The notes under the pieces are model-generated. The model searched no databases. It saw nothing but the letters and a program-made list of their open reading frames with translations, and had not been told where the DNA came from. From an uncultured virus (IMG/VR IMGVR_UViG_2061766007_004243) (lineage: Duplodnaviria; Heunggongvirae; Uroviricota; Caudoviricetes), in IMG/VR virus record IMGVR_UViG_2061766007_004243: a stretch of 20,000 bases of DNA. The stretch is one strand, 5' to 3'. Below are positions 1-18,987 of this stretch, in pieces. Both the position numbers and the translations under genes were made by a program. Position 1 is the stretch's first letter. Each line of letters begins with the position of its first letter.

Positions 1-124
1 TAATCAGGCCGCGCATGGCTTTGGGTGCCATCTCTCCAATGGATATGCTTATATCCAGGCTGTCAGGCTGAACTGGCTCCGCGGGAGTAGTTTCAGCTTG
101 GGCTTGGTTTCTGCTTCTCGGCAT
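1..124 (-). CDS. 5' part of a hypothetical protein (runs off the window)
   Basis: ATG at 124-122 preceded by AGGAGG; open frame MPRSRNQAQAETTPAEPVQPDSLDISISIGEMAPKAMRGLI to base 1. Not in the ORF track. Confidence 0.6.
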   Translation of the reverse strand, partial: MPRSRNQAQAETTPAEPVQPDSLDISISIGEMAPKAMRGLI

Positions 125-203
125 TTGAATTTCCTCCTGTTACTATATATTTGCCCCATGTTCGTGGCAGCCAGCCACAGGCGAGGGACATCTCATTGCC
201 TAA

Positions 204-406
204 GCTGTACAATGGGAGGGCAATGGCCTGACGAATTCCTCCAAGAGCATCACGCTCGTTTGGAAGTCAGTCAGCCGGCCTTCCCGTTGTGCAGCGTTCG
301 ATTTGTGCAGGTAGAGCACCCATAAGGGGCACTCGAGTCAGCGAACAGATAGAATCGGCGATGGGTAAAGGCGGTTCGCCATTGTANNNNNNNNNNCAAC
401 ACATCG
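204..406 (+). ncRNA. Putative IS110 bridge RNA (left non-coding end)
   Basis: Stem 204-221/278-295 (three G-U pairs) enclosing nested helices CTGAC/GTCAG, TCCAA/TTGGA and GAGC/GCTC. Then two stem/internal-loop/hairpin units: GTTCG 296-300 with CGAAC 342-346, and CGATG 359-363 with CATCG 402-406. Directly upstream of the transposase RBS. Confidence 0.6.
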
Positions 407-418
407 GGAGGATTCAAC

Positions 419-1661
419 ATGTTCGCAGTAGGAGTCGATGTTTCCAACGGCAGAAGCACAGTCGCTGTACTTGGAGCCAGGAGAACAGTGGTGGTGAGGC
501 CGTATGAGGTTCCACACACAGCGGATGGTTTTGCCGAGCTGACGGCAAGGCTCAATGATCTGGATGGCGAGGTCAGGATCGTCATGGAGCATACCGGGCG
601 GTACTATGAATCGTTAGCCATGAGTATGTACCGGGCAGGCTTCTTTGTGTCTGCCGTGAACCCTCTGGCTATCAAGGATTACCAGGAGGGGATCAGCGTC
701 CGGAAGGTGAAGACCGACAAAGCAGACGCCCTGAAGATCGCCCAGTTTGCCATTGACAAATGGGAGATCCTGCCGCAGTATAGTCCCATGGATACGATTC
801 GCTACGACCTCAAGACCATTCACCGGCAGTTCCAGCTGTCCTCCAAGACCAAGACCGCGCTGAACAACAATCTGATCGCTCTGTTGGAGCAGAGCTACCC
901 CGGCGCGAACAGGTACTTCGACAGCCCGGTCCGGCCGGACGGCAGCCAGAAATGGGTGGACTTCGCAGACACCTTCTGGCACGTGGACTGTGTGGCCAAG
1001 GTCAGCCGAAAGACTTTTACGGAGCGGTACCGGAAGTGGTGCAAGCGTCACGGATACAACTTCTCCGAAGCCAAGGCTGTCGAAATTCACGAGGATGCCA
1101 GGCAGAAGTTCCCGCTAGTACCCAAGTCCGACACCTGCAAGCTTTTGGTCAAGGAAGCTGTTAGCCAGCTCAACGCTGTTTCCCGCACGGTGGAAACCTA
1201 CCGCGCTGAGATGGATCGCCTGGCCTCTCAGCTTCCGGAATACGAGACTGTCATGGCCATGACCGGCGTGGGCAAGTCCATGGGACCGCAGTTGATGGCA
1301 GAGATCGGCGACCTTCGCCGCTTTGCGCACCAGAAGTCTCTGGTAGGCTTTGCCGGCACCGATCCGATCAAGGATGATTCCGGCGACAAGGTTTCCGACA
1401 GCAANNNNNNNNNNGCGCGGTTCTCCTTACCTTCGCAAGACGCTCTTTGTTATCATGACGATCCTGCTGCAGCTTCAGCCCCCGGACGATCCTGTCTACC
1501 AGTTCCTGGACAAAAAGCGCTCCGAGGGCAAGCAGTACTATGTGTACATGACTGCCGGCATGACCAAGTTCCTGCGCATCTACTACGGTAGGGTCCGTGA
1601 TTGTCTCAAAGAGAAAGGTCTCTGGGAGCAGCCCTCTGTTGATGAGGTCAACCCTGGTTGA
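419..1661 (+). CDS. IS110-family transposase (DEDD RuvC-like domain + Transposase_20 domain); frame break only at the N-gap 1405-1414
   Basis: GVDVS, VMEHTGRY and KTDKADA give the DEDD tetrad; GVGKSMGPQLMAEIGD and FAGTDPIKDDSG (catalytic Ser motif); C-terminus RGSPYLRKTLF... continues in the 1350..1661 frame after the gap; RBS GGAGG 407-411. Confidence 0.95.
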
Positions 1662-1662
1662 C

Positions 1663-1778
1663 AGGGGTTGGGAACCAACCCCTTGACTGTCCATGAGCAT
1701 AGACAGCACGACGAGTCAAGGATGCCGTAGGCACGGCCGAAGGCCGCTTGTCCTTGACGCGGCGGGATGGCTGTGCTA
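1663..1778 (+). other. Structured right non-coding end of the IS110
   Basis: Perfect hairpin AGGGGTTGG-GAA-CCAACCCCT (1663-1683); GTCAAGGA...TCCTTGAC stem enclosing hairpins TGCC-GTA-GGCA and CGGCC-GAA-GGCCG. Confidence 0.6.
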
Positions 1779-1788
1779 NNNNNNNNNN

Positions 1789-2370
1789 CTTGCCGTGCAG
1801 GCCGCCGCCGGTGACAGAATCACCCATGTCGCTGCCCAGCTTGCGGTTCACCGCGCCGGTGTCCACGTCAGTGCCACCGGTCCAGGGTCCCAAAGGATTG
1901 ACCTCGGCCTTTGGATACAGGTTCTGAATGTGCCTTGTCATGGCGTTGCTCTGGCATATGACCAGCCTGTCTCCGTCAAGTATGTACTTTCCGTCATAGG
2001 GAAACAGCTCGTAAATGCGGCGGGCGATCCTGCTGAGCCGTTTCTGTTCGGCGGTCACCGGCACGCCCCGGAAGATGCCGTTGTCTCCGCAGCGCAGGCC
2101 CTGCTTCTGGTTATCCGCCAGGTGTTCGTCCTGCGGCAGCTGCTTAAGATTCACGCGCACGCTGCCGGCTATGCGGCGCACCGCCATGTACACTTCCTTT
2201 TCCGGAAGCATGACCGAAGTCTCGCAGATGATGTTGCACACGCCGTGGCCGATGAGAACTTCAACAGCTATACGCGGATGTGCCGCTTTTCTGTACGCCA
2301 TGTCTACCAGCGCGCCGGCAATGCGGTCGGCGATTTTGTCAACATGCTGAGGGTTTACTTTTTCGAACAT
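1789..2370 (-). CDS. metK: Phage-type S-adenosylmethionine synthetase, 3' end lost at N-gap
   Basis: MFEKVNPQHVDKIADRIAG (HPDK-like), CGDNG (GAGDQG-like), DTGAVNRKL and TGGGLHGK (GGGAFSGKD-like); AAGGAG before ATG at 2370. Confidence 0.85.
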
Positions 2371-2879
2371 ACAGAATACTCCTTGCTTTTTATTCTTCCT
2401 CGTTGGAACCCGGTTGCGCACCATCTCTCAACATCTTCTTTATATACATATCTCTCAAGTATACCATTATTAATCCATCTTCTACGCGCGGTATCAGCTT
2501 TGAAAAAAGCACGCAAATCAATGGAAACCTTTCGATTTCGGTTTGCATCCCCAATTCTTCGCTTGACAGTTCCATAATTCAAGTTATGAAGATGTGTGCA
2601 CCACTCAAGATTCTCAACATTATTGTTTTCTTTATTCTCATCAAGGTGATTCACTTCTGGAAAATGGTTTGGATTAGGTATAAACGCTTCAGCAACAAGC
2701 CTGTGGATCAAATGATTTCTTTTGGAGTTTCTGAGCCATAAGCACACCCTTAGATATCCATTTCTTTGGCGATCCCCTTTTAAAACATGTGGTGCCTTTT
2801 TGACACTACGAACTTTGCCCGTATTGGAGACTTGATAGTGGCCTTCATAGCCTGCTACATCTCTCCATTCAGTTTCCAT
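2355..2879 (-). CDS. NUMOD4-domain HNH homing endonuclease
   Basis: EWRDVAGYEGHYQVSNTGKVRS (NUMOD4); IHRLVAEAFIPNP...EVNHLDENKENNNVENLEWCT (HNH_3); AT-richer than its neighbours; overlaps the metK start. Confidence 0.92.
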   Translation of the reverse strand: METEWRDVAGYEGHYQVSNTGKVRSVKKAPHVLKGDRQRNGYLRVCLWLRNSKRNHLIHRLVAEAFIPNPNHFPEVNHLDENKENNNVENLEWCTHLHNLNYGTVKRRIGDANRNRKVSIDLRAFFKADTARRRWINNGILERYVYKEDVERWCATGFQRGRIKSKEYSVCSKK

Positions 2880-2917
2880 TCACCGCTCCTATTAACAGAA
2901 GTACAGATATGCATATG

Positions 2918-2948
2918 AAAAGGACCCTGCTTTCTTAAGCAGAGTCCT
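2918..2948 (-). terminator. Hairpin plus short T run just downstream of the late-type promoter (terminator/attenuator-like)
   Basis: Minus strand AGGACTCTGCTT-AAGA-AAGCAGGGTCCT-TTT. Confidence 0.5.
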
Positions 2949-2971
2949 CTCCTGATCTTCAACATGATACC

Positions 2972-3029
2972 ATTATAGCACCCCTTGTAGTCACATTTAG
3001 TACCATCAAAGTGCCATTTAGTTCCAAAT
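2972..3029 (-). promoter_or_regulatory. Activator-dependent late-type promoter with four phased direct repeats
   Basis: Extended -10 TGCTATAAT (TATAAT at 2977-2972) with no consensus -35; repeats AGTCACATTT, AGTACCATCA, AGTGCCATTT and AGTTCCAAAT at 2989, 2999, 3010 and 3020; lies downstream of RinA/ArpU-like genes. Confidence 0.65.
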
Positions 3030-3454
3030 CAGGCTGTTTTTATGTTAAGATTCTGATTTATTTCTTCGGAATCTATCCAGAACCTTGCGCCGGCGTTCCT
3101 CATGTACCTTTTCGCCCTTTTGAATTGAGCGGCAATGTCCTCGGGGAGGTTTATGTCCCGGCCCCGAGCCCTGGAAGCGGCCCTGTAAGACGCGATCTCC
3201 TCATTGACGTGATCGCCCGTGATGTACACATACCTGACGTCCGCCTGTCCGCTCAGCTGGTAGGCCACGTAATACCTGTCCAGCCACAGTACGCCGTTAT
3301 CGTTTGCCATCACTACGGGCTGGGGAAACTTCCCGGACATCTCGCTGATCATTTTCGAATAGTCCGGTGTGCGCAGGCGGTGCCTTGCGGCGATCTCCCT
3401 GGCTATCTTATACACTTCTATGTTGCTCAGCAGGCCTTCATCATTTTTCTTCAT
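3029..3454 (-). CDS. Hypothetical protein, paralogue X3 (YYVAYQL family)
   Basis: 141-aa ORF; shares GKxPQP and WxDxYYVAYQLxGxAxVxYVYI with 3715..4118 and 5421..5885. Confidence 0.85.
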   Translation of the reverse strand: MKKNDEGLLSNIEVYKIAREIAARHRLRTPDYSKMISEMSGKFPQPVVMANDNGVLWLDRYYVAYQLSGQADVRYVYITGDHVNEEIASYRAASRARGRDINLPEDIAAQFKRAKRYMRNAGARFWIDSEEINQNLNIKTA

Positions 3455-3704
3455 ATTCCCCTCCCCCGTCCAGTATCCGTTCCACCAGCTGCAGCGCGTC
3501 TCTGTGCAGCCGGAACATATGTGTTCTGCTCAGGCCCATTATCTCGCGTATCTCGTTCCAGGGCTTCATGCACAGGTACCTAAGCTCCAGCAACGTCTGG
3601 CATGAGATATCCGGCACCTGGTCTATGACGTCGGCGATATCCTTACGGATGGCTACCAGCTCATCCACCGTGTTTCTGAGCTTCATTTCCAGTTCGCTGA
3701 TACG
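3441..3704 (-). CDS. RinA/ArpU-like (DUF1492) transcriptional activator, copy 3, C-terminal part (5' end in gap)
   Basis: RISELEMKLRNTVDELVAIRK...LLELRYLCMKPWNEIREIMGLSRTHMFRLHRDAL, a sigma region-4-like HTH. The ORF track fuses it to X2 across the gap. Confidence 0.8.
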   Translation of the reverse strand, partial: RISELEMKLRNTVDELVAIRKDIADVIDQVPDISCQTLLELRYLCMKPWNEIREIMGLSRTHMFRLHRDALQLVERILDGGGEYEEK

Positions 3705-4375
3705 NNNNNNNNNNATTGATGAACTTTCTTTGAGGTCTATCCAGAACTGTTCATCGTTCTCTTTCATCTGCCTTCGGGCCGTACGAAACTGCCTTTCAAT
3801 ATCAGGAGGCAGGTGTACCGCGATCCCGCGCGCTTTCCCTGCTGCCCTGTAGGATGCTGTCTCCTCATCGATATGGCGGCTTGTGATATATACGTACCTG
3901 ACGTCAGCCTCCCCGCTCAGCTGGTATGCTACATAATACACGTCTACCCAGAGACTGCCTTTTTCATTCGCCAGCAAATAGGGCTGGGGAACCTTGCCGC
4001 GCGCGTTCTGCCGGAACACCGCGAGATCAGGGCGTGGAAATCCATATCTGTCAGCGAGATGCGCGGCTATGTCCCAAACCTCCTGAAGATTCAGGTGTGC
4101 GCCTTTATCTGCCTTCATGAAGCTTCTCTCCTCTGCTCTCGCAATACGGTTTCGACCGCTGACAGGGCTTTACTGTGCAGGTGAAACACCTGAGAGCTTC
4201 GCAGTTTCATCATGTCGCATATTTCGCCCCACGGCTTCATGCACAGGTACCTGAGCTCCAACAGCGTCTGGCATGAGATATCCGGCACCTGATCTATAAC
4301 GTCGGTGATCTCCTTACGGATGGCCACCAGCTCATCCACCGTGTTTCTGAGCTTCATTTCCAGTTCGCTGATACG
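3562..4375. repeat. 143-nt direct repeat (3562-3704 and 4233-4375) inside DUF1492 copies 3 and 2
   Basis: 8 mismatches by manual alignment, mostly synonymous. Confidence 0.9.
3715..4118 (-). CDS. Hypothetical protein, paralogue X2 (last codons in gap)
   Basis: MKADKGAHLN...WVDVYYVAYQLSGEADVRYVYI...FWIDLKE; ATGA overlap with the upstream DUF1492 stop. Confidence 0.85.
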
Positions 4376-4516
4376 CGCTATGCTGTCCGCCATGCTGTCG
4401 GTATTGCGGGAGCGGGATACAGCCTCCCTGCCGTAGGACGCGGTCACCCTCTCGGCGAGCGCTCTTAACCTATATATCTGCTCATTTTTGTTAGCGATCC
4501 GCGTTTCCAGCCTGTA
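4115..4516 (-). CDS. RinA/ArpU-like (DUF1492) activator, copy 2 (first ~10 codons in gap)
   Basis: YRLETRIANKNEQIYRLRALAERVT...LLELRYLCMKPWGEICDMM...VFHLHSKAL. Confidence 0.85.
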   Translation of the reverse strand, partial: YRLETRIANKNEQIYRLRALAERVTASYGREAVSRSRNTDSMADSIARISELEMKLRNTVDELVAIRKEITDVIDQVPDISCQTLLELRYLCMKPWGEICDMMKLRSSQVFHLHSKALSAVETVLREQRREAS

Positions 4517-4526
4517 NNNNNNNNNN

Positions 4527-4838
4527 CGATCCGACCGAACTGACCATGACAAATGCGCTGGTCACCTACACCGACAGCAATGCGGTACTCGTCCTGTTTA
4601 CCTGCGGTAAGGGTTTCACAGCCTATAACATCGGTCCTGACGGAAGTGTGCAGTGGCAGCTGAATGACGAGCAGGCGCAGTCTGTCGGCGCCGGCATCTG
4701 CTATGCTGTGCAAAGCGACGGCGTGTTCTACGTGATAGGCTACTATTCATCCGTACTGACCGCAATCTCCCCCGACGGCAGATTCCTTTGGGAATGCAGT
4801 TGCGACGACGAGAATATTTATTGGCCTTATTACATCGA
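4527..4838 (+). CDS. Fragment of a beta-propeller (PQQ-like repeat) protein, isolated between two gaps
   Basis: Repeats AYNIGPDGSVQW and TAISPDGRFLW; opposite strand to all neighbours. Confidence 0.45.
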
Positions 4839-4848
4839 NNNNNNNNNN

Positions 4849-5199
4849 TGAGTAGTACTTAAGGGAAATGGCCAGCTGCTCCCTGTAGGGTCTCTGCCTT
4901 ATCTGCTCGTAGGTTCGATCCACGTCTTCTCTGTGCCGGCTGACGCCCTTGTAGAACGCGCACTTGTCGAACCCGGGACAGCCTCCCGTGAGCGCTGTGC
5001 ATTCAGGATATCCGCCGCCGCTTACGTCCGCGGGTATGTACGCGAAGCATGTCTCCAGGGATGTGTGTCTCCGGCTGGTGTTCGTACCATCCGGCGGGAA
5101 CAGCCCCCGTCTGCGCATGCGTTCCTTAAGTCTCTCCTCGCGTATTATATTGGATATGGCCTCGCCCGCCGTGGGGTCGGGGTATCCGTCTCCGTTCCT
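4849..5199 (-). CDS. Hypothetical phage protein fragment: YPDPTAG motif plus Cys-rich domain
   Basis: RNGDGYPDPTAGEAISNI...CFAY...CTALTGGCPGFDKCAFYK; both ends in gaps. Confidence 0.65.
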
Positions 5200-5209
5200 N
5201 NNNNNNNNN

Positions 5210-5424
5210 GTGCTGATCTGTGTGCCGAGCTCGGTTTCGGCCTCCGTAAGCTTCACAATCGCGTCCTCCAACGAATGAACGTTTCGCGTCCGCGACACCA
5301 CTTCGCTGCCATAGGATGTGGTCACGGTCTCCGCCAGTGAACGGATGGATTCGATCTGCTGCAGCTTGCTCCTGATCCGCTGTTCAAGGCGGTAGGCCTG
5401 GCTGAGGAATTCTTTTGCCGTCAT
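5210..5424 (-). CDS. RinA/ArpU-like (DUF1492) activator, copy 1, N-terminal part
   Basis: MTAKEFLSQAYRLEQRIRSKLQQIESIRSLAE, the typical DUF1492 N-terminus; cut by gap 5200-5209. Confidence 0.85.
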
Positions 5425-5885
5425 ACACTCACCCCCGTATTGTAAGTTCCTGTGCTGAATGAATTGTTCTGCGTGACTGCTCTATACGGCACCTCGTTTA
5501 CATCCACCCATATCTGGCAGCCTTTGGCAAGCATCTCCCCGCGCGCGCGTTTGAACTGTCGCAGGATACCGTTCGAAGGTTTAAAATCCTCACCGCGCAG
5601 TTTTGACGCATGCTTGTAACCGGATATTTCTTCAAGCACATGATGCTTGGCGATATACACATACTTGACCTCGGCCATGCCGTCCAGCTGATAAGCCACA
5701 TAGTATCTGTCCACCCACATGCGTCCGTTGTTACTGTCAAGAATTATGGGCTGAGGAATCTTGCCGGACATCTCGCTCCGCATTCTGCAATAATCCGGCA
5801 GTCGAAGCCCGTACTTTCTGGCGATGTACTTTGCGATATTGAACACCTGCATTGCGTTCAACGATTCCATTTCGTTTATGTTCAT
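5421..5885 (-). CDS. Hypothetical protein, paralogue X1
   Basis: 154 aa; WVDRYYVAYQLDGMAEVKYVYI; GGAGG RBS; 4-nt overlaps with both neighbours. Confidence 0.85.
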   Translation of the reverse strand: MNINEMESLNAMQVFNIAKYIARKYGLRLPDYCRMRSEMSGKIPQPIILDSNNGRMWVDRYYVAYQLDGMAEVKYVYIAKHHVLEEISGYKHASKLRGEDFKPSNGILRQFKRARGEMLAKGCQIWVDVNEVPYRAVTQNNSFSTGTYNTGVSV

Positions 5886-6067
5886 TTTGTCCTCCTGTTA
5901 TTACCGGCGACAGCAGCCGTGCGCGCAGCGGTCTTTTTTGCTTTCTGGCCTGCCTTGCGGCGCTTTGCTTTGGCTGCCCGCTTCTGCTCCCTCATAATGT
6001 TTGCTATAGCCTGTCCCGCGGTGGGATCGGGGTATCCTTCACTGTTTCTGTACACCCTTATCACCAT
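5882..6067 (-). CDS. Small basic phage protein with RNSEGYPDPTA motif
   Basis: 61-aa ORF; motif shared with 4849..5199; Lys/Ala/Arg-rich tail. Confidence 0.7.
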   Translation of the reverse strand: MVIRVYRNSEGYPDPTAGQAIANIMREQKRAAKAKRRKAGQKAKKTAARTAAVAGNNRRTK

Positions 6068-6275
6068 CCTTGCTCTTGTCTTCGATGTACACGATCAGCG
6101 CCATACCCAGTTTTTTTGCCAGCGGATGCTCGTGCCACTTGCGGATCAGCGCCATCAGATCCTCACCGGCTTTGCGCCAGAATTCCTCGCAGCCGGGATT
6201 GTGGATCGTGGGCGGGTTGTCGTATGTTTTCAGGTAATTCCAAAGATCCCTGAATATCGCTTTCTCGGTTTCCAT
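6039..6275 (-). CDS. Hypothetical protein (78 aa)
   Basis: GGAGGTG RBS; TAATG coupling to the (duplicated) SNF2 stop. Confidence 0.7.
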   Translation of the reverse strand: METEKAIFRDLWNYLKTYDNPPTIHNPGCEEFWRKAGEDLMALIRKWHEHPLAKKLGMALIVYIEDKSKDGDKGVQKQ

Positions 6276-6431
6276 TACACTTTCACCTCCGCTTTCACAG
6301 CTTCAATCAGCGCCTCTTGCACTCTGTCCTTCTCGGACAGCGCCTTCAGCACCCTCGAATCTACAGTNNNNNNNNNNTGTATGTTTTCAGGTAATTCCAA
6401 AGATCCCTGAATATCGCTTTCTCCGTTTTCA

Positions 6432-7803
6432 TTACACTTTCACCTCCGCTTTTACAGCTTCAATCAGCGCCTCCTGCACTCTGTCCTTCTCGGACAGCGC
6501 CTTCAGCACCCTCGAATCTACAGTGTCTTTCGTCACAATGTGCATGATCACAACCGTATCGGCTGTCTGCCCCTGCCGGTAAAGCCGCGCGTTCATCTGC
6601 TGATACAGTTCCAGCGACCAGGTGGGCGTGAACCAGCATATCGTGTTACCGCCCGCCTGCAGGTTAAGCCCGTGGCCGGTTGAAGCGGGATGCGCCAGCG
6701 CCACCTGAATTTGCCCGGCGTTCCACCGTTGCATCGATGCTTCGGAGTCAAGCCGTTCACAGGCGATGCCCAGTTTCGTCAGCCGCGCGGCGATGCGGTC
6801 GTAATCATGCTTGAACCAGTAGGCTACCAGCAGCGGCTTTCCATTCATGCCCTCGATGATGTCCTCCAGCGCGTCCAGCTTCCGGTCGTGAAGGTACATC
6901 ACGCTTCCGTCGTCCGCGTAAATCGCGCCGCTCGACAGCTGCAGGAGCTTTCCCGTCAGCACAGCAGCATTGCTTGCGGTCACCTCGCCGTCCGGGAGAG
7001 ACAGCATCAATTCACGCTTCATTTTCACGTACTGCCTTATCTCCGGATAGGACATCTCGACCTCATAATTCGTGGTGATGAGTTCCGGCATCCGCAATTG
7101 TCCGCACGCCTTCATGCTGATCGTGATATCCCCTATCCTGCGGTAAATTTCCTCTTCCGCGCCGGGCAGTGGCCTGTAGCTGTACACGATCTGGCCGTTG
7201 GTTTTATCCGGCGTGAAGAAAGCATTGCGGTATTGTCCGATGAACCTCCCCAGCCGCTTACCCATATCCAGCAGTTTGAATTCCGCGAAGAGGTCCATAA
7301 GCCCGTTGCTGCTGGGCGTGCCCGTTAGCCCGACAATGCGTTTCACGCGGGGACGCACCTTCATAAGGCTCTTGAAACGTTTGGCCTGCCAGCTTTTGAA
7401 GGAAGACAGCTCGTCGATCACCAGCATGTCGTAATCAAAGGGAAGGCCGCTGTCTTCCACCAGCCACTGCACATTTTCGCGGTTGATGATGTAGATGTCG
7501 GCATTTTGCCTGAGCGCCGTCCTGCGTTCCTCAGCTGTGCCCGCCGCGACCGACCAGGTCAGGCCTTTAAGGTGATCCCACTTCTGAATCTCAGCGGGCC
7601 AGGTGTTCTTCGCCACCCGCAGAGGCGCGATGATCAGCGGCTTCCTGATCTCAAATTCCCGGTACATGAGATGTTCGATCGCAGTCAGGGTTATAATGGT
7701 TTTGCCCTCAACCCAAGCCCATATCCAGCAGCAGTGCAGCCTGCTTATGATCCAAAATATGCTTGATCGCATATGCCTGGTAATCATGTGGTATGAACTT
7801 CAT
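6432..7803 (-). CDS. Phage SNF2-family (DEAD/DEAH) helicase, reading frame interrupted at Walker A (7707-7713)
   Basis: N-terminal part 7803..7711 MKFIPHDYQAYAIKHILDHKQAALLLDMGLG, then TGA; +1 frame continues GKTIITL..., IIAPLRVA, VIDELSSFK, GLTGTP, GHGLNLQ, QMNARLYRQGQ. True start has GGAGGTG and an ATGA overlap with VRR-NUC. Confidence 0.92.
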
Positions 7804-8087
7804 CGGGCATCACCTCCAATCTCATCCAGTATTCCGGCAACAGCGGCCGGATCGTCCAGCACATACACTCTGAAGCCCAGTCGCCGCAGGAGCCTGTGCC
7901 GTGACAGCTGCAGGGGCCGCGGCCTTTTGCCGGGAGCTTTCACTTCCACAAAGGCTATGCGCCCTACCGGCAGCAGCACCAGTCTGTCCGGCATGCCGTC
8001 CATCCCCGGGCAGACCAGTTTGGAACAGATTCCGCCCAGGTCTTTTACCGTCCGGACCAGTTTCTGCTCAATCTGCTTTTCTCGCAT
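7800..8087 (-). CDS. VRR-NUC domain nuclease
   Basis: MREKQIEQKL...GMPDRLVLLP...FVEVKAPGKRPRPLQ; GGAGG before ATG at 8087. Confidence 0.92.
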   Translation of the reverse strand: MREKQIEQKLVRTVKDLGGICSKLVCPGMDGMPDRLVLLPVGRIAFVEVKAPGKRPRPLQLSRHRLLRRLGFRVYVLDDPAAVAGILDEIGGDAR

Positions 8088-8305
8088 CTGACATACTCCT
8101 CCCAGCATTCTTCAAAAGTCTCCAGGCATTCATCGCAGGCGTTGTGACGATACAGATGCGCCAGAATGATCTCGTGCCAGTCGTCGAACTTGCACGAACT
8201 GTTTCTGGGGAAGTCTTCCTTATCGCGTTCCATGTCATACGCGAGATCACCCGCATTGGTAATCTGGCCTTTATGCGTTCTCATCATGTAAGTGTAAAAA
8301 GTCAT
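8045..8305 (-). CDS. YozE SAM-like domain protein
   Basis: MTFYTYMM...GDLAYDMERDKEDFP...FEECWEEY matches the YozE pattern; AAGGAG RBS. Confidence 0.7.
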   Translation of the reverse strand: MTFYTYMMRTHKGQITNAGDLAYDMERDKEDFPRNSSCKFDDWHEIILAHLYRHNACDECLETFEECWEEYVRCEKSRLSRNWSGR

Positions 8306-8358
8306 TTTGGTTCTCCTTCTTTTGTCATGCGGTCTTCTTCACCGTCTTTCAGTTGTTC

Positions 8359-8568
8359 CACACAAACCCCCTTTATTTACAGGGGGGTTTTCACATATGT
8401 CAGCCCAGTCATTTATGTCTTGAAATAAAGGGTATAAAACCTTATTCTGTAGTAGTAAAAATATATAATAATAATTATTATCTTTTTTTGACTGACTATG
8501 TGTAATGACATAAATGACGGGACTGTCCAAAGACTGAAACCTCCCTAAAATACAGAGGGTTTTGTGTG
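8359..8568. repeat. Imperfect ~61-bp inverted repeat around an AT-rich core; candidate replication origin
   Basis: Arm 8359-8419 (CACACAAACCCC...GTCATTTATGTC) matches the reverse complement of 8507-8568 (GACATAAATGAC...GGGTTTTGTGTG); core 8420-8506 is very AT-rich; immediately downstream of the primase gene. Confidence 0.7.
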
Positions 8569-8576
8569 TTGGGGTG

Positions 8577-11096
8577 TCATTCGGAACGGACGACGCTTGT
8601 TATGTCAAACTGACAATAGTAGTGTTCGACCCAGGGGTTGACGAGATAGGCCGGCATGGGCGGTCTTCCCTTGCCATAGCTTGCCGTGGGCTGGACAGTG
8701 GTGATATAGCCGTAGTCCTCGAGGAAATCCAGGACGGGCTGGATTTCAGCCACAGTCTTGAACATCTGGCAGTTGCGCATGGCCGTCCTGCGGTTGAACT
8801 CCTGCAGCCGCTTGTCATGCAGCATCTTCAGAATCTTGTGCGCGTTCTGGAACATGGCGTTATCGGGCAGGACGTTGAACACAGCCTGGGCGTGGTTCAG
8901 GAAGTACCTTCCCAGCCGGATGGCATTTTTCATTGTCTGCCCATCGATCACAAGCGGCTCGGGCACATCGAGAAAGTCATGGCAGCGCTCGACAGACGAC
9001 CTGCACAGCAGCCCCGCAATACGCAGCGTATTGCCAGGCAGCTTGCCACACCAGTCTGCGATTTCGGCGTACTCCTTCACGAGCTTGCCTTCGATCTCGT
9101 CCGAGAACGCTTCCAGCAGCCTGTCCGCTTCAGGGGACAACGTGATGAGCTCAGGCCTTTCCGAGTACTCATCTTCCAGCAGGTTGAAGATACGGCGCTC
9201 ATAGGCTTCGTAGACGCCGGGCGGGACCTGCGTACTCCGGTACTGCCTTGATCCGACGATGGATTTGGGCATGCTGTAGAGGAAACGCGCGGTGAGGCCC
9301 CTGCCGCGGAAGGTCTTGTTGCTCAGGACCCTGGACACGGCTTCAGGCTGCGCCATCATGAGAATCGTGAGCGAGGGTCGCATAATGCTCTCGCTTTCCC
9401 TGCCGATACGGTCAACCCGGATTGGATCTCCAGAATAACTTTTAAGCAGCACGTCAATATTGGGCATTTTGCTGTATGCGCCCGCGAAGGTGTCGAACAG
9501 GCCCGCTTCGCTGGAAAGCACCGACATGCGTCCGTCGTTCTCAGCCAGCACGGACACCAGTTTTTCCGGCGTGATGTCATCCGCGAACAGACGAAGGGGC
9601 TTCCGCGGGATGTATTCCGTCAGTTCCCTGGCGATTTTGTCCGCTTCGGACTGCTCCGCTTTCCCTTTTGCGATCTGCTCCTCGATCGCTTTTTGCCTGC
9701 GTTCAAGGATGCGCATGTGCATGCGGCTCGTTTCGACCGCTGCGGCGTGCTCCCGGTTATAACGGCTCTCGTAAGTGCTGAGCGGGCTTACCGGTCCGTG
9801 CTGCGCAGCGGATTTTCTCTCGGACGGTGCCGCGATAACAACTTCATACAAGTGTGGCGGCTCCTTCCAGTCGGGCTTGGCCTGAATTTCGTATTTGCCA
9901 TTCATGCTTGCCGATACTGCACTAAGAACGCTGCAGCCTACCATGTCGGGTGGTACCTGAATGCTGTCAGCGTAGGCGTTTACGTAGTCTGCCAAAACAG
10001 GAGGCAGCGCGTCCACGGGAAATGCGGTAATAGTATGTTTGCCAAAGGGAATCGGCTCCTCCCATGAGGAAGACACTTCTTCGAAATCCTTCTGCGCCTT
10101 CGCCGTCCGCTCCGTCTGCAGCGCTTTGCAGACCTCTTCATCCTCTTCGGCCAGCGCGCACATCTGCTGGAACGAGCCCTCCCCGTCGCCAAAGCGGTGC
10201 AGCCGGACGAGGTCGAAGGCGTTCAGCAGTTTGCCCCCAGCCGGGTCAGTCGCGTGATGGCTGTAGGCAAATTTACCGTCGTAGATCACGACGCCTGCTG
10301 TGCCCTCGCCGGGGATGTAATCGTAGCGGCCTTCCTTGAGAGACGGCGAATATACACTTGACAGGTACTTTTTGATCGCGTCGTGGATGCTGTAGGTGCG
10401 GCAGAACGCACCGACAATGCCGCTTTTGGTCAGCGGGTCTTCCTGCTTTCTGCCGTCGGAAGCCCGCAGCGGCTTTTCCTTGCTGGCGATCGGCAATTTG
10501 GAACAGTCGCGCCAATCCGGATACGCGGCAAGGAAATCCATGGCGTTCAGGAACGGTCCGTCGACCACCTTACAGATGTACTCGCCGTCTGACGGAGTCG
10601 AAGGCCAGTACATCAGCTGGTTTACCTTGTAGGAGCACATATCAAACTGGTCGATGCCCCACTGAGCGGCAAAGTATCTGGCGACCGCGTTATAGCAGTC
10701 CGGGGTGATGTCCTTTTCGAAGGGCATTACAATCCTGTACCGGGGAGCCTCGGGCGTATGCCCGTGGGTGGTATAAACCGCCGCCGCATAACCGCACCGG
10801 CTGAGAAACTTATTCAGGAACCCCATGTCTGCGGTGTCGGAATCGAGTGTGAGCAGCGACCGGCATTCCACGTTCTCTGCCAGGCGTCTGCCGTCCCTGA
10901 GGCTGCCGCCGACAAAACCGCCGATGTCTTTTGCCTTCTCTTTATCGTCCCGGCTCATGGCGTGATACTCTGCAACCGTCTCGCGCGTCCTGAGCGTGGT
11001 CTTCAGCTTCTCGCAGAGCTTTTCCCAGCTGATCGTGCTGTTCGTCCATTTCAGGGAGTCGGCGCTGCGGCCGAGGGCAATCTTTAAATCGCGCAT
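8577..11096 (-). CDS. Phage primase-like N-terminal domain fused to a DUF3987 (YfjI-like) P-loop domain
   Basis: KDIGGFVGG, RSLLTLDSD, YTTHGHTPEAPRYR, QLMYWPS, AYSHHATDP (N-terminus typical of VapE-type phage proteins); FPVDALP, APSERKS, DDITPEKL, RGRGLTARFL, GRPP...YLVNP (DUF3987); AAAGGAG before ATG at 11096. Confidence 0.85.
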   Translation of the reverse strand: MRDLKIALGRSADSLKWTNSTISWEKLCEKLKTTLRTRETVAEYHAMSRDDKEKAKDIGGFVGGSLRDGRRLAENVECRSLLTLDSDTADMGFLNKFLSRCGYAAAVYTTHGHTPEAPRYRIVMPFEKDITPDCYNAVARYFAAQWGIDQFDMCSYKVNQLMYWPSTPSDGEYICKVVDGPFLNAMDFLAAYPDWRDCSKLPIASKEKPLRASDGRKQEDPLTKSGIVGAFCRTYSIHDAIKKYLSSVYSPSLKEGRYDYIPGEGTAGVVIYDGKFAYSHHATDPAGGKLLNAFDLVRLHRFGDGEGSFQQMCALAEEDEEVCKALQTERTAKAQKDFEEVSSSWEEPIPFGKHTITAFPVDALPPVLADYVNAYADSIQVPPDMVGCSVLSAVSASMNGKYEIQAKPDWKEPPHLYEVVIAAPSERKSAAQHGPVSPLSTYESRYNREHAAAVETSRMHMRILERRQKAIEEQIAKGKAEQSEADKIARELTEYIPRKPLRLFADDITPEKLVSVLAENDGRMSVLSSEAGLFDTFAGAYSKMPNIDVLLKSYSGDPIRVDRIGRESESIMRPSLTILMMAQPEAVSRVLSNKTFRGRGLTARFLYSMPKSIVGSRQYRSTQVPPGVYEAYERRIFNLLEDEYSERPELITLSPEADRLLEAFSDEIEGKLVKEYAEIADWCGKLPGNTLRIAGLLCRSSVERCHDFLDVPEPLVIDGQTMKNAIRLGRYFLNHAQAVFNVLPDNAMFQNAHKILKMLHDKRLQEFNRRTAMRNCQMFKTVAEIQPVLDFLEDYGYITTVQPTASYGKGRPPMPAYLVNPWVEHYYCQFDITSVVRSE

Positions 11097-11110
11097 ATCT
11101 GGTTCTCCTT

Positions 11111-12208
11111 TCACAGAATAATTTCACGGTCGCGTCCGTCGAGACTCATACGGAACTCCCTCAATGCGCCTTTCCAGTAGGGCTGAATGAAAACCGTTTT
11201 GCCGTCCCCGTAGTGACGCCAATGACCGATCACATACCAGACCAGTGTGTGGCGTTCGAATTCACGGTCAGAGCCGTATTGAGCCCTATGGATGTCATCC
11301 GCGTTAATGACATGCTTACGGATATAACGGACAAATCTCCTGTGATTGCCTTTCTTTCCATATGCCGCGTATACGGGTTCGGTTCGGGGATTACGGAAGA
11401 CGTCCTTTACGGTCGGGTGCAGCAGCGCAACCTGGATGCCGTACCACGTAGTCATATGCTCGTAGACAAGATCAATCATGCCCATCTGCTTCCACTGCCG
11501 TCTGCATGAATTAAGTATCTCCGCAGGAACATTGCGATGACCTGTTTTTTCGATCATTATTGTGTCTACTCCCTTGCAAACGCTGAACGGAAAGATGAAC
11601 GTGTACCCATTAAGATCAATAAGCAGAGCGCCGACATCAACCGGCTCGTCGCCCGCCGATTCTATGCGTTCCCTGTAATCCGGAAAAATGACGACGCGGT
11701 AAGAACAGACCAGGCCGTTGGGTTCATCGGTTTCGTCCACGACGATCTCACAGTCCATCATCGGGATTCTCCCGCTGAAAAAGATGTCGGAAGGTAACCG
11801 CCCCTTCGGAACGGAGCAGCCCTTCATCCAAAGCTCGCACAGGGCCTCGTCATCCGCTCTTTTCAGGCATATTCTGTCGTCGGGGCGCGAACGCCTGATG
11901 TCCTGCCAAAGCGCTTCGTTCTCTGATCTGTTCAGAAACTTTACTGGAAAAAGATTCAGCGCGCTGTTTGCGCTGTTGATTTTGCCGGTGGAGAGTATTT
12001 TGCTGAGCGCATCCTGACAACGCCTGGGGGTGACGCCCGCTGCTTCGGCATAAAGCTTTGCTTCATCCATGAAACGGAAAAAATCTTCTTCCGGCATTGA
12101 GAGAAACCAAGCGCGCGTTTTTTCATACATATCGATAGTCAGGACCTGCCTCACTGCGTACAGCACTTCGTCTACGACCTGTTCCCTGGGCATATTCCTG
12201 TAGTCCAT
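11111..12208 (-). CDS. Hypothetical phage protein with C-terminal GHWRHY...FIQPYWKG motif
   Basis: 365-aa ORF with AGGAGG RBS, co-oriented with the primase. Confidence 0.8.
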   Translation of the reverse strand: MDYRNMPREQVVDEVLYAVRQVLTIDMYEKTRAWFLSMPEEDFFRFMDEAKLYAEAAGVTPRRCQDALSKILSTGKINSANSALNLFPVKFLNRSENEALWQDIRRSRPDDRICLKRADDEALCELWMKGCSVPKGRLPSDIFFSGRIPMMDCEIVVDETDEPNGLVCSYRVVIFPDYRERIESAGDEPVDVGALLIDLNGYTFIFPFSVCKGVDTIMIEKTGHRNVPAEILNSCRRQWKQMGMIDLVYEHMTTWYGIQVALLHPTVKDVFRNPRTEPVYAAYGKKGNHRRFVRYIRKHVINADDIHRAQYGSDREFERHTLVWYVIGHWRHYGDGKTVFIQPYWKGALREFRMSLDGRDREIIL

Positions 12209-12378
12209 AAGTCAACCTCCTATTAAATTGTTTTGAGTCTTTCATCTTTCTGAGCAAGCCATCTTACCCGGTGAGGTAATGGGATTCTGTATAAACTGCT
12301 CCTAACTGGTGTCGCCGTATCGCATATTCGCACATTCCTTTCATGTGATAGTGGGAGGCGGATCATCCTCTCACCAGC

Positions 12379-12578
12379 TATGTAGCCAAACAGTGCATTT
12401 TTCCGGTCCGCAGAAAAATATTTTTTCTGCGCGCGGGCGTGAAAAGTTTTCTGAAAAAAGTTTCGGGGGCACCGGAAAAACAGGTCCTTTGGCTACATAG
12501 CTTGTGGAAGGACGAAATCCGGAGCGTCCTTCAAAAAAGTTTTCGGATGACCGGAAAAACAGGTGGTTTGGCTACATA
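12379..12578. promoter_or_regulatory. Three copies of ACCGGAAAAA-N7-TTTGGCTACATA (one minus, two plus) in the divergent intergenic region
   Basis: Minus copy 12379-12407; plus copies 12471-12499 and 12550-12578; both boxes are identical in all copies with a variable 7-nt spacer. Confidence 0.8.
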
Positions 12579-12598
12579 TCGGGTGAAAGGAGGTCCAC

Positions 12599-12769
12599 AT
12601 GGATGAAAACAGGCCCGCCAATGATCAGGAACTGATCGATGTGCTGATCGCAATCAGCGTTGTAGCGAGGCGATTGGCAAGGAAACTGGAAATCTTGGAA
12701 AAGGAGAAACACCATGAGCAAAATGAACGAACTGATGCAGACGCTGGATGCCCTTATCGCGTGCGGTGA
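12599..12769 (+). CDS. Small phage protein (56 aa, ELIDVLIAISVVARRLARKL)
   Basis: Strong RBS AAAGGAGGT before ATG 12599; below the ORF track cut-off; resembles the small ORF that precedes this type of replication operon. Confidence 0.6.
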   Translation: MDENRPANDQELIDVLIAISVVARRLARKLEILEKEKHHEQNERTDADAGCPYRVR

Positions 12770-13082
12770 GACGCTCATCCGGTCGGCATCTGCCATCCGC
12801 GAAATGTTCAAAAGTGACGCGGAACTGACACCGGCGCATGATCCCGACCTGCCGTGGCCTGAAAAGGGAGAGCCCGCGCAGCAGGAGCTTCCAAAGGAGG
12901 GCCCCGAAGCAAAGACATACGCAAAAGAAGATGTCCGCGCCATGCTGGCTGAGTTGTCACAGACGGGGCACCGTGCTGAAGCAAAAGCGCTGGTAAGCAA
13001 ATACAGCGGAGGCGGCACTTTTGCGGACGTGCCTGCCGCGAAGTATAACGAACTGGTAAAGGAGATTATAAGCTATGCCTGA
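12714..13082 (+). CDS. Conserved phage protein (family often labelled 'rRNA biogenesis protein rrp5')
   Basis: MSKMNEL...EDVRAMLAELSQTGHRAEAKALVSKY...VPAAKYNEL; AAGGAG RBS; precedes DUF2800. Confidence 0.75.
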   Translation: MSKMNELMQTLDALIACGETLIRSASAIREMFKSDAELTPAHDPDLPWPEKGEPAQQELPKEGPEAKTYAKEDVRAMLAELSQTGHRAEAKALVSKYSGGGTFADVPAAKYNELVKEIISYA

Positions 13083-14198
13083 TCACGCGCTGCTATCCGC
13101 GTCGTCCAGCTACCGCTGGCTCAACTGTCCGCCCAGCGCGAGGCTTGCAGCTGAATACCCTGATACCTCATCCCCCTATTCCCTGCAAGGCACGCAGGCG
13201 CACAGCCTTGCCGCCTATAAGGTAATGCGGGCGTTGGGCATGGACGCAAAAGACCCCACCGGGGAGTTGACCCTGTTAGATCATGAAATGGAAGACTGCA
13301 CCGACGCTTACTGCGCCTTCGTCATGGAACAGCTGGCGGAGACCAAGAAGCACTGTTCCGACCCCGTTGTGCTGGTAGAGCAGCGGCTGGACTTCTCCCA
13401 CTGGGTACCTGAGGGCTTTGGCACAGGAGACGCCTGCATCGTAGCTGATGACCACCTGCACGTCATCGATTTCAAATACGGCATGGGCGTTCTTGTGGAA
13501 GCTGAGCGCAATCCGCAGATGATGTGCTACGCACTGGGGCTGTTGGAGGCTTTCGACGAAATCTACACTATCCGCACAATCCGTATGAGCATCTTTCAGC
13601 CCCGGCGAGACAATGTTTCGACGTATGAGATCAGCAAGCGCGATCTGCTTTTCTGGGCTGAGACTGTGCTCGCCCCTACCGCCAAACTGGCATACAAGGG
13701 AGAAGGCACCTTCAAGGCGGGCGATCACTGCCGGTTCTGCCCCGTCAAGGCTACCTGCCGGAAACGGGCCGAGTACAACCTGGAAATGGCGCGCTACGAC
13801 TTTACGCCGCCTGCGACACTAAGCGAGGATGAAGTCGCCGCAATACTGCCCCGCCTGGACGAGCTGGTGGCGTGGGCGGATGATGTGAGAGCTCATGCCC
13901 TGGCGCAGGCGATCTCGGGCACACACTATCCTGGGTTTAAGCTTGTAGCCGGACGCTCCGTAACAAAGTACACCGACGAGGACGCCGTGGCGCTTGCCGT
14001 CAANNNNNNNNNNNNNNNNNNNNNNNNNNNNNNNNNNNNNNNNNNNNNNNNNNNNNNNNNNNNNNNNNCTTTGATGAGCTGCTTGGCGGTCTGACCTACA
14101 AACCCCAGGGCAAACCCGCGCTCGTGCCGGAGAGCGATAAACGCCCGGCAATCACTACAGTCAACAATGATTTTATGGAGGAAAATGAACATGAGTAA
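13075..14198 (+). CDS. DUF2800 PD-(D/E)XK (Cas4-like) phage nuclease, spanning gap 14004-14068
   Basis: HALLSASSSYRWLNCPPS, VEQRLD, GFGTGDA, VIDFKYG, NPQMMCYALG, GDHCRFC...C; after the gap FDELLGGLTYKPQGKPALVPESDKRP...TAA at 14196-14198. Confidence 0.9.
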
Positions 14199-14754
14199 AT
14201 TCGTCAATTCCTGCAAAGTAATCACCGGTCCCAATACCCGCTGGTTCTACGCAAACGTGTGGGAAGCCCGCGCCATCAACGGCGGGACACCCAAGTTCTC
14301 CGTCAGCCTGATCATCCCGAAAACGGACACAGAGACCATAAATAAAATCAACCGTGCAATTCAGGCTGCTTACGAGGAAGGCCAAAGCAAGCTGAAGGGC
14401 ACCAGTAAGTACATGCCCAGTCTTGAGGACATCAAGAACCCGCTGCGCGACGGCGACAAGGAGCGCAAGGGCGATCCCACGTATGCCGGGTGCATGTTCA
14501 TCAACGCCAACAGCAGCACCGCGCCGGGCATCGTGGACGCCGACCGTCAGCCCATTCTGGAGCGTTCCGAGGTATACTCCGGCGTGTATGGCAGGGCGAG
14601 CATTACCTTCTACGCCTTCAACTCCAACGGCAATCGCGGTATCGCCTGCGGCCTGAACAACCTGCAGAAGATCCGTGACGGTGAGCCGCTGGGAAGCCGC
14701 AGCCGTGCTGAGGATGACTTCGACACCGATGATGACGACGATTTCCTGTCATAA
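14191..14754 (+). CDS. DUF2815 single-stranded DNA-binding protein (T7 gp2.5-like)
   Basis: PKFSVSLIIPK, PLRDGD, EVYSGVYGRAS, GIACGLNNLQKIRDGEPLG and an acidic tail; GGAGG at 14177-14181. Confidence 0.93.
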   Translation: MSKFVNSCKVITGPNTRWFYANVWEARAINGGTPKFSVSLIIPKTDTETINKINRAIQAAYEEGQSKLKGTSKYMPSLEDIKNPLRDGDKERKGDPTYAGCMFINANSSTAPGIVDADRQPILERSEVYSGVYGRASITFYAFNSNGNRGIACGLNNLQKIRDGEPLGSRSRAEDDFDTDDDDDFLS

Positions 14755-14761
14755 AAAAACA

Positions 14762-14794
14762 CCGGGCAGCAGAGTGATGAGCTCTGCTGCCCGG
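14762..14794. terminator. Perfect 13-bp hairpin between the SSB and polymerase genes
   Basis: CCGGGCAGCAGAG-TGATGAG-CTCTGCTGCCCGG, preceded by an A run (T tail on the minus strand). Confidence 0.55.
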
Positions 14795-14811
14795 CAGGAT
14801 TGGAGGGTAAT

Positions 14812-16794: not shown

Positions 16795-16888
16795 CATCCT
16801 CATACGACGGATTAACACTGCTCTCCCCTTTCATGGGCGCGGTGCTTCGTTGCTCATAGCATTACTTTTGCTTTTTATTCTATGTCAG

Positions 16889-16917
16889 TTGACAGACACA
16901 TATGCTCATGCTATAAT
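16889..16917 (+). promoter_or_regulatory. Consensus sigma-70/SigA promoter for the XRE gene
   Basis: TTGACA 16889-16894, 17-nt spacer, TG-n-TATAAT 16912-16917. Confidence 0.85.
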
Positions 16918-17093
16918 ACAAAGTACCAATTAGGGAATATTGTCCGTTTGGACGTGTTGAGGTAAATATATGGATTTTATTAAATTTGAGTTTCCTCTCC
17001 AGCGCATCAATGGCGAAGACTATATCGTTGGTTTGGACGATGCCGGCGTTCTTAAACATAGAAGAAAGCANNNNNNNNNNCTGAGGTAAATAT

Positions 17094-17456
17094 ATGGATT
17101 TTATTAAATTTGAGTTCCCTCTCCAGCGCATCAATGGCGAAGAATATATCGTTGGTTTGGACGATGCCGGCGTTCTTAAACATAGAAGAAAGCATCTGGG
17201 GCTGACACAGCAGCAGGTAGCAAAGTTGGCAGGTATACAGGTCAAGCAATACCAGCGGCTCGAATCCGGCGAGCGCAACATTATGGGAGCCAGCATGCGC
17301 ATTGGGTTGTCCATATGCGCTGTGCTCAAACTCGATCCATACAGTTTTATCGGGACCGCGGAGAGCATGAACAAAGCGATCAAAGTGACCAAGATCACAC
17401 CCGATCGGCTGCCTGATATGCAAATAGATTTTGACGATCGGCCCGGGAAGGGGTAG
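17094..17456 (+). CDS. XRE-family helix-turn-helix regulator (5' end duplicated at 16970-17070 across a gap)
   Basis: LKHRRKHLGLTQQQVAKLAGIQVKQYQRLESGER. Confidence 0.9.
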   Translation: MDFIKFEFPLQRINGEEYIVGLDDAGVLKHRRKHLGLTQQQVAKLAGIQVKQYQRLESGERNIMGASMRIGLSICAVLKLDPYSFIGTAESMNKAIKVTKITPDRLPDMQIDFDDRPGKG

Positions 17457-17580
17457 ATGCTCAAGTTTTCTATTTCTTGAGCATCTGGGTTTTTGCGTCA
17501 AAACTGTTAGATTTACGTCGCTACTCGACAAGAAATCGTATGTTTTACTCCCAAAAACCGTAGATGCTCAAGATGCTCAA
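17455..17580. repeat. Four AGATGCTCAA(G) copies (one inverted pair, one overlapping tandem pair)
   Basis: 17455-17465 (+), 17476-17486 (-), 17562-17572 (+), 17571-17580 (+). Confidence 0.8.
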
Positions 17581-17620
17581 CTTTCCCCCACTCCATAGTT
17601 GATCATGTGCGAGGTATAAC

Positions 17621-18688: not shown

Positions 18689-18813
18689 ATGCGAGCATGA
18701 GAAGAAAAGTCTGTAAACAAGAGAAAACCGAGGCCTTCTGTGATAGAAGAATAATTCATAGGAGGCCTTGATTATGACAAGCAAGAAGAAAGGATATTAC
18801 AAGCCTGGACTCG

Positions 18814-18903
18814 GCGAACATCTACACGCACGTTAGGGACGAGATGCTGAAGAAGGCGACGGTGAACATGGGAGAAGTGTTCGGGAGCAGGGAGAAGGGC
18901 TGA
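18814..18903 (+). pseudogene. 3' remnant of a tyrosine recombinase/integrase
   Basis: Frame reads ANIYTHVRDEMLKKATVNMGEVFGSREKG-stop (catalytic-Tyr 'IYTH' box); no upstream start in frame. Confidence 0.55.
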
Positions 18904-18923
18904 CAGGCTGGAATTATGACGGT

Positions 18924-18948
18924 TCCGGGCGTTTTGCCCGGATTCTTT
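18924..18948 (+). terminator. Possible intrinsic terminator
   Basis: TCCGGGC-GTTTT-GCCCGGA followed by TTCTTT. Confidence 0.4.
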
Positions 18949-18958
18949 GCGTTTTGGA

Positions 18959-18987
18959 TTGAAAAAGCAGTTGGAAAATGGTATAAT
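18959..18987 (+). promoter_or_regulatory. Sigma-70-type promoter
   Basis: TTGAAA-N17-TATAAT with TG extension. Confidence 0.6.

Follow-up and report, generated by a model that had tools for sequence, protein, structure and literature searches.

The stretch of DNA analysed here, referred to as the window, comprises 20,000 nucleotides (nt) of an uncultured virus (IMG/VR record IMGVR_UViG_2061766007_004243). Judged from its sequence, the part running from position 137 to at least 1778 is an insertion sequence of the IS110 group (IS110 family), while positions 1789-20000 hold a phage-like replication module. The genes of the window include those for a NUMOD4/HNH endonuclease, two DUF1492 proteins, an SNF2 helicase, a DUF3987 protein, a DUF2800/PD-(D/E)XK protein, an Enc34-type single-stranded DNA-binding protein, a family A DNA polymerase, and an AAA_25 ATPase, as well as a fragment resembling SAM synthetase. 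Given this phage-like module, the IS110 element sits in a phage or prophage.

The transposase gene of the element starts with an ATG at 419 and ends with a TGA stop codon at 1659-1661 (Table 1). Its product matches the Pfam families DEDD_Tnp_IS110 (E = 9e-27) and Transposase_20 as well as the NCBIfam model NF033542, "IS110 family RNA-guided transposase" (159.1 bits, cut-off 140), and the best match among solved structures is the IS621 transposase 8wt6 (E = 2.6e-11). Residues D7, E57, D100, D103, and S321 align with D11, E60, D102, D105, and S241 of IS621, for which the roles of the DEDD residues and the catalytic Ser have been described (PMC11208158). An intact transposase of 414 amino acids (aa), 90% identical to that of the window, is encoded by one relative (L007). 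The ribosome-binding site and the ATG are as described in the initial annotation, an earlier reading of the same letters made without database searches. Upstream of the gene lies a non-coding left end of 282 nt (137-418), which measures 275-277 nt in most relatives, and this upstream position corresponds to the arrangement of the IS110 group and not to that of the IS1111 group, where the non-coding region is found downstream.

Relatives of the element were collected from 45 loci, 44 on genome contigs and one from viral contigs, and their transposases are 36-94% identical to that of the window. Nearly all derive from metagenome-assembled genomes of Clostridia from gut and rumen, so "clostridial-type", as the element had been called, is a fair description. 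A megablast search of window 100-1780 against phage and plasmid collections gave no matches.

Table 1 Features of the IS110 element and its left flank in the window.
Feature	Position	Strand	Remarks
ATG of flanking gene	122..124	-	12 nt from the junction; reading frame open for 41 aa to the window edge
Left target (LT), TTTCCTC	130..136	+	6/7 match to left target guide 235-241
Core dinucleotide CT	137..138	+	First bases of the left end; 23 related loci
-10 box TACTAT of predicted junction promoter	141..146	+	Read from sequence
5' stem-loop	164..178	+	164-168/174-178; 97.5% of cells paired; 4/5 pairs compensatory
Closing helix P1, 5' strand	192..200	+	Pairs with 357-365, 9/9 in the window
Target-binding stem-loop	204..295	+	Consensus fold; helix 3: 12/23 pairs compensatory, 87.8% of cells paired
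Left target guide (LTG), ATTCCTC plus C	235..242	+	Same as left-flank top strand
Right target guide (RTG), TTGGA plus AG	260..266	+	Reverse complement of core plus 5 nt of right flank
Donor-binding stem-loop	296..355	+	Consensus fold; helix 6: 7/8 pairs compensatory
Left donor guide (LDG), TGTGCAGG	304..311	+	Same as the relatives' right-end tip TTTGCAGG before CT
Right donor guide (RDG), AACAG	344..348	+	Complementary to left-end start CTGTT (137-141)
Closing helix P1, 3' strand	357..365	+	Shared with alternative hairpin 358-364/379-385
Run of 10 N	387..396		Outside both guide loops
Transposase ribosome-binding site, GGGAGGA	406..412	+	GGAGG invariant in 27 aligned sequences
IS110-family transposase gene	419..1661	+	Frame broken solely by N run 1404-1413
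Structured, conserved right-end part	1696..1778	+	3' of the stop codon; fold z = -3.58

Fold of the non-coding left end

The structure of the left end was derived by aligning 29 left ends and folding the alignment with four candidate guide segments held unpaired. This replaced an unconstrained RNAalifold consensus of the close family, in which the guide bases were paired with each other and the outer stem was shifted. In the resulting fold, a small 5' stem-loop is followed by a closing helix that encloses two stem-loops, referred to as target-binding and donor-binding. The target-binding stem-loop consists of an outer stem (204-221/278-295), a helix (224-232/270-277), an internal loop of 12 + 12 nt (233-244 and 258-269), and an apical hairpin (245-248/254-257). 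The donor-binding stem-loop has a base helix (296-299/352-355), an internal loop, and an apical hairpin (314-334). A search of window 1-2400 against Rfam 15, with E values up to 10, gave no matches, meaning that Rfam either has no model recognising such an RNA or none that fits this one.

The outer stem had been noted for being interrupted by nothing other than G-U pairs, and indeed all 18 of its 18 pairs form, three of them G-U, which exist on the + strand and correspond to C-A mismatches on the other strand. In a control with mononucleotide shuffles of window 1-4000, allowing G-U pairs and loops of up to 120 nt, an 18-bp stem also occurred in one of 20 shuffles, and the stem alone is therefore weaker evidence than it appears. 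The larger fold is more distinctive, as the RNA of 190-386 reaches -88.8 kcal/mol (z = -6.19), a value that none of 200 dinucleotide shuffles equalled. Across the 29 sequences, 88.1% of the structure cells can pair, compared with 32.5-42.9% when the partners are slid by one to three columns, and compensatory changes are seen in 28 of 49 pairs, compared with 10-16 when slid; since the tested structure was derived from the same alignment, the slid control favours it. On four of five measures, no shuffle out of 500 reached the observed value, while 65 of 500 did so on the fifth. Aligning the regions upstream of homologous transposases was a check proposed with the initial annotation, and its outcome is a conserved fold with compensatory change. 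The stem in 1/20 shuffles is also what would speak for an inverted repeat that arose by chance in GC-rich, non-coding sequence, an explanation refuted by compensatory changes across transposases down to 36% identity together with the guide statistics given below, and so improbable as to be negligible.

The anatomy of the fold differs from that initially proposed. The stem at 204-295, which had been interpreted as a 5' arm of ~90 nt preceding the guide modules, is the target-binding stem-loop itself, and the first of the two predicted stem and loop units (296-346) is real, with its true extent reaching from 296 to 355. The second unit (359-406) holds up in part: a hairpin (358-364/379-385) can form, with 7/7 pairs in the window and pairing in 82% of cells across the 29 sequences, but it contains no internal guide loop and was rejected as a guide module, being an alternative pairing that shares a strand with the closing helix. 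Of the two pairings, the closing helix (192-200/357-365) is better supported. Its duplex forms in all 29 sequences with a mean of -12.4 kcal/mol, and z is below -1.64 in 24 of them. In the most distant relatives, its letters are quite different, yet the pairing is kept. The covariation of the hairpin is, by comparison, no better than that of shuffles (237 of 500 reach its compensatory-pair count), and its pairing is weak (-3.6 to -5 kcal/mol) among the most distant relatives. According to the model, the two guide modules form a three-way junction together with the closing helix, and this helix would be a structural novelty.

The closing helix and the hairpin before the ribosome-binding site are mutually exclusive, and both are kept in the close family. 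It could be speculated that the alternatives open to strand 357-365 act as a switch between folding of the RNA and translation of the transposase. As a separate observation, one DNA sequencing run (X1, window 180-366) gave a summed contig depth of 213.9 over the first left-end bin of ~65 nt versus ~20 over the coding region, which is ~10-fold, and one of its contigs skips 259-343, a hint that the sample contains numerous left ends that are related or shortened.

Element ends and guide segments

All 23 loci with a left flank share their sequence from CTGTTAC (window 137) rightwards and diverge directly to its left, and this sharp divergence identifies 137 as the left end and CT as the core. All 23 left junctions have the CT core, as do 26 of 27 right junctions, the exception being L023 with TT; in the window copy, the left junction is the one present. 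As in other members of the IS110 group, the ends carry no terminal inverted repeats. At the other end, a right-end tip, TTGACTTTTTATTTGCAGG followed by CT, was found in 27 of the 45 loci. Right ends are undefined for L036, L038, L039, and L041, which were used solely in the structure count and the reading of left flanks.

The paired parts of the left end are conserved, and the loop bases are its most variable part. When loci were compared, the loop bases tracked the sequences flanking the element. The LTG has the sequence of the top strand of the left flank and would thus pair with the bottom strand. Across 24 loci, it matches its cognate left flank at 4.79 of 7 positions on average and non-cognate flanks at 3.38, and none of 100,000 permutations reached the total. 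The match is complete (7/7) in five of the 24 loci and 6/7 in the window itself. For the RTG (the five bases 260-264), the corresponding values over 19 loci are 4.26 of 5 for cognate and 1.96 for non-cognate right flanks; 11 of 19 loci match at 5/5, and the total was again reached by none of 100,000 permutations of locus pairing. In the window's clade, the LTG spans the first core base only, as the next guide base is A and the core has T. For the window copy, the target match can be measured on the left flank only, and its right target is predicted to read CT followed by TCCAA. Among distant relatives, matches counted by eye amount to 10/10 (L023) and 9/9 (L021) on the left flank including the core, and to 7/7 (L032, L034), 8/8 (L033), and 7/7 including the core (L045) on the right flank. 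The guides miss in a minority of cases, with 2/7 or fewer on the left in five of 24 loci (L001, L012, L013, L020, and L024) and 2/5 on the right in L015. Several of these lie on metagenome-assembled contigs, in which the flank and the guide may come from different copies.

Two further observations concern individual relatives. L044 (1227-1581) is a miniature element of 355 nt without a transposase, consisting of a full left end, 18 transposase codons, and a right-end tip; it has GTGACT as its -35 box, its guides match its own flanks at 6/7 (left) and 5/5 (right), and it is either a non-autonomous derivative or an internal deletion. One isolate genome (G001) carries at least three further related copies (L047, L052, and L053), whose contigs break inside the left end. 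Here, the left flank ends in CCAC before CT and the guide reads CCTC, so that the same single mismatch is seen in every copy.

These loop bases also bear on what the stems could be doing. One alternative is that the fold is a 5'-untranslated region that has no guide role and only regulates how the transposase mRNA is translated or how stable it is, as might be expected of a structure placed directly upstream of a ribosome-binding site with a strand (357-365) that pairs in two exclusive, switch-like ways. Such a regulator would give no reason for loop bases to track flanks and element ends across loci, nor for these bases to be the most variable of the left end with the paired parts conserved, and this explanation is very unlikely. 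Alternatively, the stems may act as DNA, for example as single-stranded hairpins recognised by the transposase as in IS200/IS605, since long inverted repeats are found near the element end. Against this, the three G-U pairs of the stem, and many more in relatives, form solely on the + strand as RNA, the transposase is of the DEDD/Ser IS110 type and not an HUH enzyme, and the loops, like those of bridge RNAs, match opposite strands of double-stranded flanks, making a role as DNA extremely unlikely. The preferred reading remains that of an RNA carrying guides.

The second loop was compared with the ends of the element, where the donor match of the window copy rests on the right ends of relatives. 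In L009 (T to C at one position) and L028 (CAGG to TAAG, two positions), the LDG has changed in step with the right-end tip, while changes in the guide only are seen in L014 and L034. Complementarity between the RDG and the left-end start is seen in three variants, namely CTGTT/AACAG, CTACT/AGTAG (three loci near 55% identity), and CTCCT/AGGAG (L033). Covariation of loop bases with target and donor, which had been named as a check, has accordingly been found for both. It had also been stated that the guides could not be assigned owing to N in the second loop and at the right end. Relatives allow the assignment, as their right ends are readable, and the N run at 387-396 falls outside both loops.

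In relatives, the right-end tip includes a putative -35 box, TTGACT, which is absent from the window. Joining the right end to the left end would place TTGACT, followed by 13 nt and the first four left-end nt, which begin with the CT, at a 17-nt spacing from TACTAT, and this predicted arrangement resembles the split promoter reported for IS110 circles, where the right end meets the left end (PMC11208160). A promoter scan also returned GGGACA-17-TACAAT (+ strand, 185-213) and CTGCCA-17-TATAGT (- strand, 170-142), each with 9/12 matches, to which no weight was given. Parts of the element are present in six RNA (metatranscriptome) runs as assembled contigs, which carry no start, end, strand, or level. 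In three of these runs and one DNA run, contigs extend over the coding region and over some of the left end (X15: 136-194 and 358-460). As assembled contigs with possible DNA carry-over, they say nothing for or against a small RNA.

Proposed bridge RNA and comparison with known systems

Boundaries, conserved and covarying structure, and complementarity of guides with flanks and element ends are directly supported across the relatives. It is very probable that a bridge RNA of ~210 nt with the architecture of IS621 is encoded by the left end between ~153 and 365, and comparative evidence thus supports the original proposal of a bridge RNA with target- and donor-binding loops at this left end. 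From 5' to 3', the RNA would comprise the hairpin at 164-178 and the closing helix enclosing first the target-binding and then the donor-binding stem-loop. Within the donor loop, the LDG would recognise the right-end tip and the RDG the left-end start. If it behaves like IS621 and CazIS110-1, the element would excise as a circle, joining the -35 box of the right end to the -10 box at 141-146 and switching on the bridge RNA. Recombination between the circle junction and a 14-nt target, at the CT core that both contain, would then be carried out by the RNA-loaded DEDD/Ser transposase. We infer transcription, the RNA ends, transposase binding, and recombination from this comparison. Taken as a whole, the initial annotation is partly supported, its interpretation being right in kind and wrong in anatomy, and the mechanism would follow from strong comparative evidence.

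A qualification of this reading, which does not exclude it, is that the bridge RNA gene is real in the family while the copy in the window is dead or incomplete, and so can neither excise nor rebuild the promoter. Relatives extend ~130 nt past the equivalent of 1778, ending in the tip with its -35 box and the CT core, and a search for the tip across the whole window with up to three mismatches gave no matches. From 1789 onwards, following an N run at 1779-1788, the window instead holds the interior of the SAM-synthetase-like reading frame on the other strand, matching the predicted right target at two of five positions (by eye), and public contigs continue from 1778 into other sequence, none of them into window 1789 onwards. 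On the other hand, the break coincides with an N run. Three such runs, each exactly 10 long (387-396, 1404-1413, and 1779-1788), fall within this part, and others are evident from translations of later parts of the window. At 387-396, relatives and public contigs are nine letters shorter, and at 1414 they have two more letters, which makes the runs look like placeholders of unknown length, so a truncated copy and an assembly gap are indistinguishable for the window copy and the assembly may simply lack the right end. With its left end and reading frame otherwise intact, a dead copy is possible though rather doubtful, and the main reading of a bridge RNA gene stands in either case.

What is present of the right end is itself structured, the fold of 1645-1778 having a free energy of -61.2 kcal/mol (z = -3.58). 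Hairpins span the stop codon region of the transposase (1647-1652/1657-1662, and a 9-bp hairpin at 1663-1671/1675-1683), and beyond them lies a long branched structure, which relatives keep with changes on both strands (by eye). A tandem duplication of ~50 nt is found within the right end of L014 (2778-2938).

Bridge RNAs have been known since 2024 as guides telling the recombinase where to insert, with IS621 of E. coli as the described RNA and recombinase system (Durrant et al. 2024, PMC11208160; Hiraizumi et al. 2024, PMC11208158). Like IS621, the window element has the RNA encoded in the left end upstream of the gene, with a 5' stem-loop first, the target-binding stem-loop second, and the donor-binding one third, the latter two both having the order stem, guide, hairpin, guide. 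In both, the LTG and LDG pair with the left bottom strand and the RTG and RDG with the right top strand. The two further share a CT core and a DEDD RuvC-like domain combined with a Tnp domain carrying the catalytic Ser, and the sequence of the present element would fit a promoter split between the right and left ends, as in IS621. The proteins are nevertheless distant, aligning over the RuvC part and a short Tnp stretch, and that of the present element is longer (414 aa in L007 versus 326), with ~160 interdomain residues versus 66. The target-binding unit is 92 nt versus 65 nt in IS621, with an outer stem of up to 18 bp, and the two units abut (295/296), whereas those of IS621 (TBL 34-98, DBL 110-177) are separated by 11 nt. 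While the LTG of the window's clade reaches only the first core base, the RTG covers 5 nt plus the core, compared with 4 nt in wild-type IS621. Finally, a closing helix encloses both units in the window element, and the available text of the IS621 descriptions (PMC11208160, PMC11208158) yielded no mention of such a helix.

CazIS110-1 from Caloranaerobacter azorensis (Clostridia) has been shown experimentally to use a bridge RNA of ~170 nt needed for both excision and integration, and an abundant RNA with the target-binding loop only as well as a direct-transfer pathway have been described (10.1101/2025.10.25.684509). By description, to which the comparison is confined, it likewise is an IS110 element of the class Clostridia with target- and donor-binding loops. 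The seekRNAs of IS1111 and IS110 elements are transposase-bound RNAs from the non-coding region that select the target, and natural re-programming among relatives has been reported for them (Siddiquee et al. 2024, PMC11187229). In IS1111, as described there, the region lies downstream with the target-matching segments reversed, whereas here it lies upstream with the IS110-type order. A catalogue of 32,190 bridge RNAs predicted from 86 covariance models, as summarised by its authors, contains many structures that deviate from IS621 yet covary with target and donor (bioRxiv 10.64898/2026.10.21.760802). The window element would be one such variant, having ~26-29 guide bases by our own count compared with a stated catalogue median of 25 and 28 in IS621. 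Given the IS621-type design, CazIS110-1, the catalogue, and the "RNA-guided" NCBI name, the element belongs to an already known kind.

Insertion next to gene starts and meaning for the family

The left target in the window is the antisense of the Shine-Dalgarno sequence of the flanking gene, whose reading frame at the window start matched no Pfam family. Across the left junctions of L004-L045 as in the window (122-138), elements of this clade mostly sit within the Shine-Dalgarno of an opposite-strand gene, the target typically reading TTCCTC before CT, and the duplicated CT core leaves the Shine-Dalgarno intact. An ATG located 8-16 nt from the junction on the opposite strand is present at 19 of 35 junctions compared with 213 of 3014 (7%) mock junctions placed within these flanks (Fisher p = 3.7e-13, for loci that are not phylogenetically independent). 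The ATG had to open a reading frame of at least 60 aa, or of at least 30 aa if open-ended, a definition replacing a looser first one that 30% of mock junctions passed. The pattern is absent at the four most distant loci. In addition, the 3' part of the LTG keeps a CCUCC-like sequence down to ~47% transposase identity. CCUCC is the core of the anti-Shine-Dalgarno end of 16S rRNA.

It may be that the bridge recombinases of this clade are aimed at translation-initiation regions, a tentative suggestion for which the balance is close to even. The distal bases of the left guide and the right guide would then drift, picking individual genes, and the element would land inside the Shine-Dalgarno facing away from the gene, separating it from its promoter. 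A literature search returned no published description of a gene-start or Shine-Dalgarno preference for IS110 elements. Neither PMC11208160 nor PMC11187229 uses RBS or Shine in its main text, and ribosome occurs once, for an unrelated cargo construct. If the preference is selected, it would represent a natural scheme of one fixed half-guide and one programmable half-guide with thousands of near-cognate sites per genome, and the element would be a gene-specific polar switch.

For annotation, the region should carry the label of a bridge RNA gene, which is not novel biology. With it, a family heavily studied as a genome-engineering tool gains one well-resolved natural bridge RNA, whose source is uncultured gut and rumen Clostridia and, for the window copy, a phage-like contig. 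The closing helix and the ribosome-binding-site preference vary the known design in small, testable ways. Finally, the loci hold 21 distinct left and 13 distinct right guides, most of them matching their own sites, and these form a natural re-programming series that belongs to a recombinase only distantly related to IS621.
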